Shown here one piece after another: positions 1,168 to 10,586 of a stretch of 21,258 nucleotides of DNA. A program made the translations under genes and the position numbers. This DNA comes from a virus. Its lineage: Duplodnaviria; Heunggongvirae; Uroviricota; Caudoviricetes. The notes beneath the pieces were generated by a model. That model had not been told where the DNA came from. It saw only the letters and a list, made by a program, of their open reading frames with translations, and made no database searches. Numbering within the stretch: the stretch's first letter is position 1; each line of letters opens with the position of its first letter. The stretch is taken from positions 1 through 21,258 of the IMG/VR virus record IMGVR_UViG_2778261303_000012; one strand, given 5' to 3'.

Positions 1168-1319
1168 TCCTCTAACAATTCAATAACATTTACTTGTTTT
1201 ACATAACAAATAAAATTCTATGTAGTCAAGAGACTTCATGCCAAGAGAAACTCATTGCACAATCGCCATCAAATTCAATGTTCTGTATCGTTTTCGAGCG
1301 TAAAAACCCGCCTATTGGC

Positions 1320-2624
1320 GCTGAGGGATCCCATAAATCAGCGCTAATAAACCAACACCATATTCTGGTAGGTTTTGGCGAGATGATTAAGAACTGTGCT
1401 CAGCACTGTTCGCCTTAAAATTAGCGGGGAGTGTCGTAAAACATTCTCCGCTAACGTCAGATACGAGATTACCCGCCGTGTTTTAATGCTGTTGGCCTGA
1501 TATCTCAGATGTAATCCTTTGTTTTCAGCATGATAGCCAATAAGCCACTGTACAATTGTACTCAGCGTCGCCAGTAGGTTCAGTACCAGCATTCTTCCCA
1601 CTGAACGACTGTAACTGTCACGCAGAGCGAACCCGAAGCGCTCGCTTTTTTCATCCCGGAAGTTCTGCTCGATTTGCATGCGACGGCTGTACAATTTCAT
1701 GATTTCCCGGGCTTTAAAGGCTACTGCTAAAGATAAGCCACGGTTCTTTTTCCGAAGAACGTCAATCATTATTTGGGATTTACGCTCTATGCGGCAACGT
1801 GAACGGCGATTCTTCCGGTCTTTCGGCTCTTTTTTATGTAAATAAAAATGGCCATCACACCGGGCATATTCCGAACGGGCAAGTGTACTCGTCCCCAGAT
1901 ATTCTGGTTTGCTTCTGGCCTGTAATTCCTGACGCCTGAACCAGTACTCACCTTTGCTGTCCAGCTGCATCTGGATATTTCCCCTGACACGACCGATAAA
2001 ATCCCATCCGAGTGACCTTATATGCCGGAACCATGCACTCTGGAAACCCGCATCGGTAACTATTATGACTCTGGCCACAGGGTTTACAGCCTCGGCAAGG
2101 GCATCCAGGAAGTTTTTTTGTATCTGCTAGTTCTGCTGTTTTTCTGACGGGACTATCCAGATTAACAGGGGAAGCGAGCGTCCATCGCAGAGCAGGCTGG
2201 CTCGGAGCACATGATGTTCCTGAGATGGATATCCACTCCAGTCAACGGCGATGACACAAAGAGATAGCTGGCTAGTCAGAATGGCAATAATATTTCTGAA
2301 AATCAGTGGGATATCGCGGTGAAGAGATTCATTACCGAGCAGTCGGTCAACGCGTTCGATTTTATTTCTGACCTGAGCCGGGCCAGGTAAATAACGCCCG
2401 ATGCTGGTCAGCGTCAGTGATGCGCCATTGATGAGAGCGATGGTGGCATCCAGCAAAGCATTTTGTCGGTATTTATGAAACGGTGCTAACGCATCGTGGA
2501 AAAAATTCTGACATACTTGTCGAGCAGACATAGAAGTGATCTCATTGATTGGTTGCACAAATCAGTAGATCACAAAACTCTATGACTGTCTTTTTTACCC
2601 GCCAATTACTGGGGATTCCTCAGC
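1320..2624 (-). mobile_element. IS4-family (IS10-like) insertion sequence, about 1.3 kb
   Basis: Imperfect terminal inverted repeats: left end CTGAGGGATCCCA at 1321, right end GGGGATTCCTCAG at 2611..2623 (reverse complement CTGAGGAATCCCC), resembling IS10 ends as recalled. A 10–11 bp direct repeat (c)gcctattggc flanks the element at 1309..1319 and 2624..2634, consistent with a target-site duplication. The internal ORFs align to IS10 transposase from memory (e.g. YS+RMQIE, DAGF, IDRLLGN motifs). Confidence 0.8.
1344..2558 (-). pseudogene. IS10-like transposase interrupted by a single in-frame TAG
   Basis: ORFs 2127..2558 (143 aa, N-terminal part) and 1344..2078 (244 aa, C-terminal part) are in the same frame. 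The only break is an amber codon (cta on plus strand at 2127..2129). The 16 codons between them translate to QIQKNFLDALAEAVNP, which continues the IS10 transposase alignment; total length about 403 codons, matching a ~402-aa IS10-type transposase. Confidence 0.8.
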
Positions 2625-2867
2625 GCCTATTGGCAGGTTTAAGCTGTGTGGCGAAGTGACCACTCTTAACACGATACAATAGTTTTTGCGTACGCGTTAG
2701 CATTTTTGATGGAAGTTAATGGTTGTTAATCTTATACTCAGTAAACAAAATTTATGCCGCCTTGAGCATGATGCGACATTAGGCACATGTTTGGATCTTC
2801 CTCGAAGATTCGTGCGGTAGCTATGCTCAAAATCCAATCAGCTCATAAAACATACTATGGGTTTTAA

Positions 2868-3617
2868 ATGCTCATTCCAACATCTCTATCAAAACAACCA
2901 GTAATCGAAGCTGCTTTCGAAATGCGTTTTTCTAAAGAAACACAAATATCGGAAATAGTTCCAGGGTTTCTTTTTCACGCTCTAGGTTGTACAAAACCAG
3001 TAATTAGTTTACCACCCAGTCAAATACCTAAAAATGTTCGTGAGGGAGATGAACAATTACATTACGCAGTTGTCAGTCGCCTCGAAATCGAAGGGTACTA
3101 TATTGGACTAAGTGACCATGGTGTTGTTGTATCCACCAGCACCAAATATCAAGGGTGGAGTCATTTTAGAGAAAAAATCATTCATGTATTAAATGAGCTT
3201 AACAAATTAAATTTAAATGACAACATCATCCGCTACTCATTAAAGTATGTAGATTTTTTCCCAAAAGAAGACGATTCTAATTTATTTGATAAGCTAAACG
3301 TCAGCTTAAATATGGCTGGCGAGTCTATGTCTAATTATCCGATCAATATCAGAATCGATAAAAATGAAGGCGCATTTCTAAATATAATTCAAATATTATC
3401 TCATGCTTTAGTCATGTCAGATAATGGAGAATTTAATAAAAAAGGACTAATCCTAGACATAGACAGTATTAGGCAAATCACTAATACTGATGAAATAGAT
3501 AAGTTTAAAAACGAACCCAAAAAAATTCTTGATGATCTTCACTCCTGTAATAAATTAGCTTTCTTTAGTTGCCTTAAAGAGTCAACAATTCAAGAACTAG
3601 AACCATCCTACAAATAG
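2868..3617 (+). CDS. hypothetical protein, cassette gene A (249 aa)
   Basis: Long ORF, first gene of a three-gene AT-rich operon. No catalytic motif recognised. An unverified recollection of TIGR04255-like proteins is too weak to use as a call. RBS is weak and an alternative downstream start is possible. Confidence 0.6.
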   Translation: MLIPTSLSKQPVIEAAFEMRFSKETQISEIVPGFLFHALGCTKPVISLPPSQIPKNVREGDEQLHYAVVSRLEIEGYYIGLSDHGVVVSTSTKYQGWSHFREKIIHVLNELNKLNLNDNIIRYSLKYVDFFPKEDDSNLFDKLNVSLNMAGESMSNYPINIRIDKNEGAFLNIIQILSHALVMSDNGEFNKKGLILDIDSIRQITNTDEIDKFKNEPKKILDDLHSCNKLAFFSCLKESTIQELEPSYK

Positions 3618-3632
3618 AAATGGTGGTATGAT

Positions 3633-3977
3633 ATGTATCCGTCTCATCATGTTTATCGAGCTCAACTTCAAGTATTAACTTTGGTTTTATATGGTCTGCA
3701 TATAACAGCATTAACAGACATTGCCCAAAATCAACAGCATGGTCCTCAACAAAGTTTAATCGTCAAAAATCACGCTTTGGAGTATAAGTCTTCAACTACC
3801 GATTCAGTTCATTCCATCACACAAACATATAAAGCAGGGAGCACAATCTCAGTTGATCAAAGACTTGCAGTCTCGATGACAAACTTTTATGAAAAATTAT
3901 CAACAAACCAGGTGTCTTTAGGCAGTGAAATAAATAAAGTCGTTCATGCTTCACTGTGGGATTTATACTTGGATTAA
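3633..3977 (+). CDS. hypothetical protein, cassette gene B (114 aa)
   Basis: ORF 15 nt after gene A stop, same strand and AT-rich composition; a GGTGG-like Shine-Dalgarno precedes the ATG. No family recognised. Confidence 0.5.
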   Translation: MYPSHHVYRAQLQVLTLVLYGLHITALTDIAQNQQHGPQQSLIVKNHALEYKSSTTDSVHSITQTYKAGSTISVDQRLAVSMTNFYEKLSTNQVSLGSEINKVVHASLWDLYLD

Positions 3978-3980
3978 GTG

Positions 3981-4595
3981 ATGAGTAATAACATTTTTGA
4001 TATCGAGAAATTCAAAGATCAAATTCCATATTATTTAACAGCTCCTCAAAAAGAAGGGCTAATAAATGCACTTAGAGATTTCCCTGAAAACACTAACTAC
4101 TACCTTACCAATTATCATGATGATCTGAAAAATGCTGCACTTCAGGGAGATATATTTAAGGAGCTTACAGTATATTCAATTAAAGGGACTAAAAAAACAC
4201 GAGGAATTATATTAAGCAACAGTTGCGATATAGATACAAGTAATAATCGTGATGTGCCAATGCGTGCAGTCTTTGCTCCGTTAGTAAGTTTATCTAAGTT
4301 CGAAGCTATTCTTCTCTCCAACGGAGTTTCTAAGACTTCAATAGATAGCAAAATTGATGCTATAAGGAAGCAGTTAATTACTAATATTTTTTATCTTCCT
4401 GAATCAGACAACTTAGAAGAATGCATCGTTTTTCTTGATGATGTATACCAATTACCAACGGAAGAATTACAAAAACTCTTGAATGATAAATGCAAAGCCA
4501 TAACTTTAAGTCAAGTTGGTTTCTACATTTTACTATTCAAAATATCTATTCACTTTTGTAGATTCCATGAAAACATACAACGATTCGATCATTAA
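3981..4595 (+). CDS. hypothetical protein, cassette gene C (204 aa)
   Basis: ATG at 3981 directly follows gene B stop (TAA 3975..3977; a GTG at 3978 is an alternative start), suggesting translational coupling. Followed immediately by a terminator hairpin. No family recognised. Confidence 0.55.
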   Translation: MSNNIFDIEKFKDQIPYYLTAPQKEGLINALRDFPENTNYYLTNYHDDLKNAALQGDIFKELTVYSIKGTKKTRGIILSNSCDIDTSNNRDVPMRAVFAPLVSLSKFEAILLSNGVSKTSIDSKIDAIRKQLITNIFYLPESDNLEECIVFLDDVYQLPTEELQKLLNDKCKAITLSQVGFYILLFKISIHFCRFHENIQRFDH

Positions 4596-4620: not shown

Positions 4621-4965
4621 TTACACAAGTATACTTACAACCCCCTCTATAAAACCGATTGCGGTTTGCAACTCCTTCCTAATAGTGCCATCAGAGCACC
4701 TTCTCTTTTTGGCAATAGTGCGTAATGAGATACCAATAACAAAGTGGGCTATGATGAGCTCATATTCCTCTGGTTTATACCTTCTCAACCGAGCCACACA
4801 ACTGTCTATCATAATGCCTTCGTCATCATCACACTGAATCCGTGACTTTTTGCCATGAGGTAAAAGCCCCTTGAAGCCTGCTGCTACCGGCTGCCAGTCC
4901 ACACCACTGTTGTCTGCTGCAGCCCATGCTCCCCAGCGGTCCAATACTTCATACATATCACGCAT
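4621..4965 (-). CDS. lambdoid antitermination protein Q-like (QuuD type)
   Basis: Start moved to ATG 4965 (ORF-track start at 4980 is TTG); GGAG RBS 8 nt upstream. N-terminus MRDMYEVLDRWGAWAA..GFKGLL....KSR.QCDDD matches my recollection of DLP12 QuuD (MRDIQMVLERWGAWAA...). Last gene of the minus-strand early operon. Confidence 0.7.
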   Translation of the reverse strand: MRDMYEVLDRWGAWAAADNSGVDWQPVAAGFKGLLPHGKKSRIQCDDDEGIMIDSCVARLRRYKPEEYELIIAHFVIGISLRTIAKKRRCSDGTIRKELQTAIGFIEGVVSILV

Positions 4966-4983
4966 CAACTTACTCCACAAAAA

Positions 4984-10256: not shown

Positions 10257-10586
10257 GATGGCAGCCTCCGTTGACAGTGAAAAACTTCCACCACCGGAAA
10301 CGCCAATTTCACTGGTGGTGAACTGGACGGGGTTGGCGTAACCGGCGTCAACGGAGACCGGCGCACCTTTCGGTGCCCCCGTCCAGCCCACCATAATCTG
10401 GATGTGAACAAATGCGGACGATAAAAAAGACGCTGGCGCGTCATACATCGCCGTTGACAATTTCAGGACGCCAATCCCGGCACCTGATTTTTCAGGTGCT
10501 GAAGCAGTGTATACTCGAAATAAATCATGATCAATAATGATGCGAGGATGGGGGTTAACCGTTATCTCAAAATAAGGAGATACAAC

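Follow-up and report, generated by a model that had tools for sequence, protein, structure and literature searches.

IS10 (IS10R/IS10A, ISVsa5), the insertion sequence (IS) of Tn10, is an IS4-family element of about 1.3 kb with 5'-CT ends and a single ORF, whose product carries the DDE residues and the YREK signature. The consensus of its targets, NGCTNAGCN, is a symmetric hot spot. In transcripts that enter IS10 from the outside, the leader folds back and hides the start codon, and the promoter pOUT activates the genes adjacent to the element. pOUT is located near the outside end and produces RNA-OUT, an antisense RNA of 69 nt whose end, at nt 47, is still within the element (PMC5006887). The IS4 family as a whole is defined by the DDE spacing, the Y(2)R(3)E(6)K motif, a single ORF, short inverted repeats and a duplication of about one helix turn (PMC2266710). 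The members of the IS10 subgroup are 1200–1350 bp long and have 5'-CT ends, the YREK motif and a 9-bp direct repeat (PMC2266710, Table 1).

IS231A is an IS4-family element from Bacillus thuringiensis which inserts into short GC-rich dyads flanked by A/T tracts. Its target consensus is GGG(N)5CCC, and the target preference of this element is said to have been described by Hallet et al. in 1994, a study cited in PMC2266710. The direct repeats of IS231A are 10–12 bp long (PMC2266710, Table 1). All copies of ISRm22, another IS4-family element, are located in extragenic palindromes, which provides a precedent for palindrome targeting (PMC1525189).

The stretch of DNA analysed here, called the window (21,258 nucleotides), is a lambdoid prophage. 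Reading leftward on the minus strand, it contains the gene of a Q antiterminator, an AT-rich cassette of three genes on the plus strand (antisense to Q), an insertion sequence, and the genes of a membrane protein and a secreted protein. We consider, with a probability of about 0.9, that an IS4-family element of the IS10 subgroup, from an IS1330-like lineage, inserted once into a terminator hairpin of this prophage and would then have decayed. The insertion would be one ordinary cut-and-paste transposition into the tip of an intrinsic-terminator-like hairpin, between the Q gene with its antisense cassette on one side and the late (lysis-side) genes on the other. It would have duplicated 10–12 bp of the inner stem and loop, in a type of site which is usual for the lineage. 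The decay probably came later: a TCG to TAG change at codon 135, a pair of coding deletions (−1/−5), and the loss of 1 bp from an inverted repeat and of 1 bp from the leader. The element is an ordinary relic, which is already annotated, and not a conditionally active IS.

Extent and Ends of the Element

The initial annotation placed an IS10-like element at 1320–2867. The insertion sequence stops at 2623/2624, and the rest of this interval (243 bp, 2625–2867) simply belongs to the prophage, being 98.5% identical in genomes devoid of the insertion. The element measures 1303 bp between CTGAGG and CCTCAG, or 1305 bp when G1320 and C2624 are counted as IS bases (boundaries 1320/1321 and 2623/2624). 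On the plus strand, GCTGAGGGATCCC begins at 1320 and GGGGATTCCTCAGC finishes at 2624; these imperfect inverted repeats, detected by reading the sequence and by a repeat search, bound the IS. The distance of 244 bp between the transposase-proximal end and gene A of the cassette holds. The coordinates of the features are collected in Table 1.

The repeat search also detected a perfect 11-bp direct repeat, CGCCTATTGGC, on the two sides of the IS. If the boundaries are drawn as in IS10, the duplication is 12 bp, with 11 of the 12 positions matching. The terminal inverted repeats and the flanking direct repeat described in the initial annotation are therefore both present, and its idea that the element arrived by simple transposition is supported by the perfect direct repeat and by the flanks, which rebuild one hairpin when joined. 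The perfect repeat and a loop sequence peculiar to this prophage both point to a single simple insertion rather than to an IS-mediated joining of two contexts. The length of the duplication (11–12 bp) nevertheless departs from the usual pattern of the lineage, in which 10 bp is typical.

Table 1. Features of the insertion and of its surroundings (window coordinates).
Feature	Position	Strand	Remarks
Insertion sequence	1321..2623	-	IS4 family, IS10 subgroup (probable), IS1330-like lineage; intact relatives 1311–1315 bp
Transposase-proximal ("outside-end-like") terminal inverted repeat	2611..2623		Minus-strand reading CTGAGGAATCCCC, inward from 2623
Distal ("inside-end-like") terminal inverted repeat	1321..1333		CTGAGGGAT-CCC, inward from 1321; contains GATC
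Target-site duplication, left copy	1309..1319		CGCCTATTGGC; 12 bp (1309–1320) if the IS begins at CTGAGG
Target-site duplication, right copy	2624..2634		CGCCTATTGGC
Conserved leader inverted repeat	2529..2588	.	Start-codon region pairs with IS nt ~36–48; fold-back of the IS10 kind
Transposase pseudogene	1344..2531	-	395 codons including the amber; ATG at 2531, stop at 1344
In-frame amber TAG	2127..2129	-	Codon 135 of 395, between the first and second catalytic aspartates
Out-of-frame stretch	1722..1770	-	aa 254–270 read MIDVLRKKNRGLSLAVA in place of the conserved KDGRSSAKEPWLIFSSTND
Split terminator-like hairpin, downstream half (minus reading)	1304..1319	-	Pairs with 2625–2640; T-run ~1301–1305
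Split terminator-like hairpin, upstream half	2625..2640	-	Pairs with 1304–1319
Three-gene cassette	2868..4595	+	Antisense to the Q direction; gene A starts at 2868
Q antiterminator	4621..4980	-	Pfam Phage_antitermQ

Relation to IS10 and to the IS1330-Like Lineage

The transposase is recognized by Pfam DDE_Tnp_1 (E 5.5e-18). When Q is put in place of the amber codon, it scores 308 bits (E 7.9e-92) against the NCBIfam model NF033591 (transpos_IS4_2), above the curated cut-off of 152 bits. The catalytic residues D97, D160 and E288 and the YREK residues (Y281, R284, E288 and K295) are present in the frame as it is read, and the three catalytic columns are invariant in an alignment of 12 sequences. 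The residues between them number 62 and 127 (129 in the intact relatives), within the D(60–110)D(100–150)E spacing of the family, and the Y(2)R(3)E(6)K signature reads YSRRMQIEQNFRDEK at aa 281–295. The layout is also that of the IS4 family: one ORF, here interrupted, 13-bp terminal inverted repeats and a duplication of 10–12 bp.

Membership of the IS10 subgroup is probable. The size (1303–1305 bp here and 1311–1315 bp in intact relatives), the CT ends (CTGAGG at both ends) and the YREK motif are those of the subgroup. The direct repeat is 11–12 bp here instead of 9 bp, which we take as a descriptive trait of the sample available in 2008 and not as a criterion. The termini match those of IS10A at 11–12 of 13 positions: the ends of an IS10A copy (L010), CTGAAGAATCCCC and CTGAAGGATCCCC, have nearly the same terminal 13 bp as CTGAGGAATCCCC and CTGAGGGATCCCC, respectively, and in both copies GATC occurs at the distal end only. 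The GATC sites in the leader, the fold-back which pairs the start-codon region with the upstream leader and the symmetric GC-flanked target are also like those of IS10. However, in a tblastn search of plasmids, the transposase is only 33.6–34% identical to those of IS10A and ISVsa5, over 93–97% of the length (E 2e-53). ISEc29 and ISXac1 are at a similar level among the named elements of the plasmid collection. The ATG is at IS nt 93, compared to 108 in IS10. The duplication of the lineage is usually 10 bp (9–12 bp), compared to 9 bp in IS10, and the IS of the window has no Rfam match. The term "IS10-like" used in the initial annotation is thus fair as a label for the subgroup, but the element is not IS10: the possibility that it is IS10 itself or an isoform is ruled out by the 34% amino acid identity.

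Much closer proteins exist. The transposase is 81–85% identical to transposases of 397 aa (a few of 394 or 399 aa), of which there are at least 120 among the matches listed, in Salmonella, Yersinia, Serratia, Pectobacterium, Klebsiella and other hosts. One of them, 82% identical to the window protein, is named "Transposase for IS1330" by UniRef; this value is too low for an isoform by the usual rule of ISfinder. The element of the window shares with this IS1330-like lineage the full-length similarity of the transposase, the termini, the leader and the type of target. It differs from it in being 8–10 bp shorter, and in carrying an amber codon, a pair of frameshifts and a deletion in an inverted repeat.

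Lesions of the Transposase Gene and of the Ends

According to the initial annotation, a single TAG is the only interruption of a transposase which otherwise has its full length and stays in frame. The part concerning the stop codon stands: the minus-strand frame is open from 2558 to 1344 apart from the TAG at 2127–2129, with no second in-frame stop. A start at the GTG at 2558 was rejected, because in the alignment all relatives begin at the ATG equivalent to 2531 (MSARQ... in the window, MPARQ... or MSARQ... in the relatives). The integrity of the remainder does not hold. The window copy was aligned with those of E. coli RM8082, the EC476 chromosome and plasmid pRHB26, with the intact copies of H22 (E. 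coli) and INF116 (K. pneumoniae), and with the intact copy L011 of Escherichia sp. MOD1-EC7003, which is 96.7% identical at the nucleotide level and is the nearest intact copy. L011 is a contig of 1315 bp labelled with a coverage of 3095, i.e., a multi-copy element. At the amber position, L011 and the EC476 copy have TCG (Ser), and the relatives Ser, Ala or Thr. Since both L011 and EC476 have TCG, the stop codon results from a TCG to TAG change.

Compared to the relatives, the window copy has four indels in addition to the TAG. Two of them are deletions in the transposase frame, one of 1 nt near 1770/1771 and one of 5 nt between 1722 and 1721. Together they remove 6 nt, so that the frame is restored and only the approximately 17 residues between them (aa 254–270) are read out of frame. 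This block precedes the YREK motif by about 10 residues, and the ancestral peptide can still be read in a different frame of the window. Where the window block is scrambled, 11 out of 11 intact relatives, from six or more genera, have the nearly invariant sequence xDGRSxAKEPWLIFSSTDD. The third indel is in the distal inverted repeat, in which a CCCC has become CCC by loss of 1 bp at ~1333, while every other copy examined has CCCC. The fourth is a 1-bp deletion in the leader, at ~2549. Among 271 columns which are invariant in the 11 relatives, the window deviates at 21, and nine of these are in the frameshift block. The 12 substitutions outside this block were considered as evidence of decay and dropped, because the intact relatives range from 0 to 13.

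A more general point follows for annotation: a frame interrupted by only one stop should not be taken as nearly intact, since a compensated frameshift is seen only by comparison with intact relatives.

Status of the TAG and Prospects for Activity

The complete genome of E. coli RM8082, a cattle isolate from California, shares this insertion and its site (99.9% identical), and RefSeq labels it there as a fragment of an "IS4 family transposase" and a hypothetical protein. The RM8082 copy has the same TAG and all the indels, and within the IS a single base is different, at window position 2365. This comparison bears on whether the TAG is a sequencing error, which the initial annotation had raised and which is unlikely, given that a complete genome has the same insertion with the same TAG. 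For the lesions taken together, the 1-nt indels do lie in short homopolymer runs (an A-run and a C-run), which are typical sites of error. However, the 5-nt deletion and the C to A substitution are not homopolymer errors, and RM8082, an independent complete genome, shares the TAG, the 5-nt deletion and the 1-nt deletions while differing at one other base of the IS. It is therefore extremely improbable that the TAG or the indels arose from errors of sequencing or assembly.

It had also been proposed that the element could be expressed in an amber-suppressor host, and hence that it might move in a supE-type host or by natural read-through. The frame is indeed open from the ATG at 2531 to 1344 save for one TAG, and the DDE and YREK residues are present in it. 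But the −1/−5 deletions exchange about 17 residues which are nearly invariant in 11 relatives, and the distal inverted repeat lacks a base that every other copy examined has kept. Because the frameshift pair replaces a nearly invariant block near the YREK motif and one end has lost a base, suppression of the amber would probably not give a normal transposase. Without suppression, the product is truncated to 134 aa and lacks two of the three catalytic residues. Moreover, a tRNA scan detected no tRNA in the window, suppressor or other, and thus no phage-borne suppressor. Conditional activity is accordingly highly improbable. An active IS has an uninterrupted transposase and two intact ends, and the window copy has neither. 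We infer that it is an immobile pseudogene, disabled at several points.

Other copies in E. coli are also damaged. Three full-length copies with at least 95% nucleotide identity are found, on the EC476 chromosome, on pRHB26 plasmids and in H3, the last with the same length and identity as that of EC476. The EC476 and pRHB26 copies, both of which were checked, carry their own, different frameshifts (two of them in the pRHB26-type copies, which are 96% identical), and the remaining matches cover at most 89% of the element. No further full-cover copy with at least 95% identity was found in 5,426 complete E. coli genomes beyond those represented by EC476, which is annotated as frameshifted. The lesions differ from copy to copy, which indicates that the copies decayed independently. 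A sister element, 83% identical, is intact in many B2 strains, where it adjoins narI.

The Landing Site in the Prophage

The insertion point of the IS is the tip of a terminator-like hairpin, located at a boundary between modules where the late-side genes begin. The removal of the IS and of one copy of the repeat gives AAAAACCCGCCTATTGGCAGGTTTAAG, an empty site which is reconstructed and not observed. The minus strand of this rebuilt site forms a stem of 9 bp, after which comes UUUUU (−15.7 kcal/mol, z −3.8), and none of 200 shuffled sequences folds as well. A re-formation of the terminator by an IS end at a junction was also considered, and dropped because the junction folds no better than shuffled sequence.

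The initial annotation suggested a comparison with insertion-free alleles, and a hairpin is present at the same spot in genomes devoid of the IS. In ACN002 and CE0007a, the 244-bp region upstream of the cassette (98.5% identical) is followed by a AAACCCGC...GCGGGTTT hairpin, about 150 bp upstream of the holin gene, and then by the holin. In APEC O1 and JNEC-KY180, the module of the left flank ends with AAAAAACCCGC...GCGGGTT, 60–85 bp downstream of a different Q gene. Elsewhere, the right flank (the cassette side) thus runs into a holin module, and the left flank (the membrane-protein module) into a Q gene. A search with the joined flanks found no insertion-free allele having both window flanks among 5,426 E. 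coli genomes. The statement that the IS separates the cassette from the divergent membrane and secreted protein genes is physically true, but no insertion-free allele with the same pair of neighbours was found which would show them adjoining.

In RM8082, a gene of the enterotoxin-A family and then the holin and lysozyme genes lie beyond the membrane and secreted protein genes. The proteins of the three-gene cassette gave no match with PADLOC or Pfam. Because the insertion both marks and destroys the terminator hairpin at a boundary between prophage modules, it is relevant to studies of the expression of the cassette or of the late genes.

Leader Hairpin and Possible Effects on Neighbouring Genes

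The leader of the lineage contains a conserved inverted repeat, GACAGGCATAGAG ... CTCTATGCCTGC. The pairing is supported by compensatory changes: the pair 35/83 is AU in 18 sequences and CG in eight, and three other pairs have one or two double changes each. In the window, one pair is broken, and the 1-bp deletion of the leader lies in the repeat. By analogy with IS10, the fold of the mRNA strand would hide the start codon in transcripts coming from the outside. On the outward strand, TCTTTTTT follows the hairpin at about 25 nt within the IS boundary, an arrangement which has the appearance of a terminator. Regarding regulation of the IS10 type, the element has a conserved hairpin in its leader, whose size and position would suit such a control, but no Rfam match in the IS (whole window searched, E up to 1) and no outward promoter-like site. 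The sole Rfam matches in the window are C4/isrK RNAs at 10.3–10.5 kb.

The initial annotation proposed that the insertion alters the expression of the AT-rich cassette through an outward promoter at the transposase-proximal end, as pOUT does in IS10. The IS10-like architecture of the end is in favour of this idea, as is the presence of pOUT near the outside end of IS10 itself (PMC5006887). A weak candidate promoter can be distinguished by eye, CTGACA (2508–2513) and TAGAAG (2531–2536) with a spacing of 17 nt, but it falls below the rules of the consensus scan, which detected no sigma-70-like promoter on the outward (plus) strand between 2400 and 2624. No Rfam family, including RNA-OUT if it is in Rfam, matches the IS, and the conserved hairpin with TCTTTTTT near the end looks like a stop rather than an exit, just as RNA-OUT of IS10 does not extend beyond its element (PMC5006887). 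In addition, gene A and the IS are separated by 244 bp which share 98.5% identity with alleles free of the insertion, from which we deduce that the cassette keeps whatever promoter it had. An effect on the cassette by outward transcription is therefore unlikely.

An effect on late transcription is more plausible than one on the cassette, while still doubtful. In that case, the prophage and not the cassette would bear the main consequence, through the splitting of the terminator that precedes the late genes and the addition of 1.3 kb to the late leader, with altered basal read-through or altered Q-dependent late expression. The hairpin has the shape of a terminator in the minus (late) direction, and in related prophages it occurs 60–85 bp downstream of a Q gene, before the first late-side gene, or ~150 bp upstream of the holin gene. 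After the insertion, neither junction folds better than shuffled sequence, and the direction of the transposase is that of late transcription. On the other hand, the consensus scan gives only one weak promoter site on the minus strand (2729–2702), which is too little to assign a late promoter, and a Q-modified polymerase normally passes terminators and probably the IS as well. The prophage is also otherwise decayed, with an in-frame TAA in the gene of the membrane protein and frameshifted genes in RM8082, so that late expression may be irrelevant.

Target Preference of the Lineage

The preference of this lineage for terminator hairpins is the sole mildly novel by-product of the analysis. Starting from 78 loci, one genome per species, and from the E. 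coli copies, 28 unique sites were retained, at which the two ends of the IS and a duplication could be located. The length of the duplication is 10 bp at 22 of them, 9 bp at three, 11 bp at two and 12 bp at one, which is that of the window with IS10-type boundaries. At 21 of the 28 sites, the first three bases of the duplication are complementary to the last three. The target consensus is A6-SS-[SGC-N4-GCS]-SS-T6. The rebuilt empty sites have a median folding energy of −11.4 kcal/mol, while that of 1065 control windows taken at these loci is −4.9 kcal/mol (Mann–Whitney p 7.6e-12). A preference for terminator-hairpin targets is thus well supported across the 28 sites. The cue may be either the structure of the DNA or a plain preference for a symmetric sequence.

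We tentatively suggest that the IS1330-like branch consists of terminator-seeking elements, although we would not yet favour this generalization. They would choose the tip of a hairpin made of an A-tract, a 5-bp GC stem, a 4-nt loop and a T-tract, and duplicate the 10 bp of the inner stem and loop; the copy in the window would be a relict of this habit, left in the terminator which precedes the late genes. The lineage differs in this respect from IS10, since its targets are terminator-like hairpins and not NGCTNAGCN hot spots. The short GC-rich dyad flanked by A/T tracts and the duplication of 10–12 bp are shared with IS231A, but IS231A belongs to another subgroup, has CAT ends and a Gram-positive host, and its transposase is not close. 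ISRm22 and the other insertion sequences which target REP sequences also differ: ISRm22 is of the IS4Sa subgroup and such targets are a repeated REP family, whereas the lineage studied here hits unrelated, single-copy terminator hairpins.

In the literature searched, no description of terminator targeting by elements of the IS10 subgroup was found, and almost nothing on IS1330; the preference may nevertheless already be recorded, for example in the notes of ISfinder. The consistent choice of terminator hairpins neatly illustrates how a DDE transposase may target "safe sites", and may merit a short note if it is undescribed.

A preferred orientation of the IS with respect to the T-tract was also looked for, but orientation is not callable, because most targets are symmetric, with an A-tract on one side and a T-tract on the other. 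The sites which lack a duplication resemble exchanged halves; two of them, L036 and L037, share a single Pantoea contig and are reciprocal to each other, an indication of an inversion.

Target specificity of the IS lineage

The tips of terminator-like hairpins are the insertion target across the whole lineage of this IS10-subgroup element. The sample of 28 unique sites was drawn from loci L011–L088 (copies on genome contigs), L002, L003 and L008, plus the hairpin split by the window's own copy (halves at 1304-1319 and 2625-2640). They give the consensus A6-SS-[SGC-N4-GCS]-SS-T6, and the duplication is 10 bp long in 22 of them. The empty sites are far better folded than control windows drawn from the same loci, with median fold energies of −11.4 and −4.9 kcal/mol, respectively (p = 7.6e-12).

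Two copies, L036 and L037, lie on one contig of Pantoea sp. R13S299, about 176 kb apart. Their flanks are reciprocal: the left flank of one and the right flank of the other rebuild terminators, two in all. This indicates that the two IS copies recombined, with an inversion as the result.

An intact copy, 96.7% identical to that of the window, is found in Escherichia sp. MOD1-EC7003 (L011), and is likely the living representative of the same sub-lineage. Its contig is 1315 bp long with a label of cov 3095, and the copy number is apparently high.

Leader of the IS

In IS10, a fold-back in the leader blocks the translation of read-through transcripts. The inverted repeat in the leader of the present element, in which the upstream leader pairs with the start-codon region of the transposase, probably acts likewise. 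It is conserved in the matching leader of 28 relatives, in an alignment which includes compensatory changes, and GATC sites lie on its flanks.

Features of the window outside the target site (+/−, strand)
Feature	Position	Strand	Remark
STM1630-like membrane-protein gene	448-1161	−	one in-frame TAA at 610-612
Leader inverted repeat	2529-2588
Promoter-like match TTAACA-16-AAAAAT	2702-2729	−	sole such match between IS and gene A (first cassette gene)
Three-gene AT-rich cassette	2868-4595	+	TIGR04255-family protein and two hypothetical proteins
Antisense RNA region	10311-10512	−

Neighboring genes and antisense module

About 90 other complete E. coli genomes share the start of the cassette and its upstream region at 95% identity or more. 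Two of them, ACN002 and CE0007a, were inspected: in both, Q stands on one side of the three genes and the holin gene on the other, and the cassette is antisense to late transcription. Pfam and PADLOC searches with the three proteins gave no match. In E. coli RM8082, which has the same insertion, the third gene is annotated as much shorter (264 vs 615 nt). The promoter-like match faces the split hairpin across a distance of about 60 nt, which makes it a candidate promoter of the late type, followed by a short terminated leader.

The antisense RNA region, a predicted P1/P7-type antisense immunity module of the prophage early region, is matched strongly by two Rfam families, C4 antisense RNA at 82 bits and isrK at 73 bits, and a match to the a1/b1 target of C4 lies there as well.

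The STM1630-like gene, which adjoins the IS, is a second nonsense-interrupted gene. It carries an "internal stop" flag in RM8082 too, and its nonsense codon is consistent with a decaying prophage.
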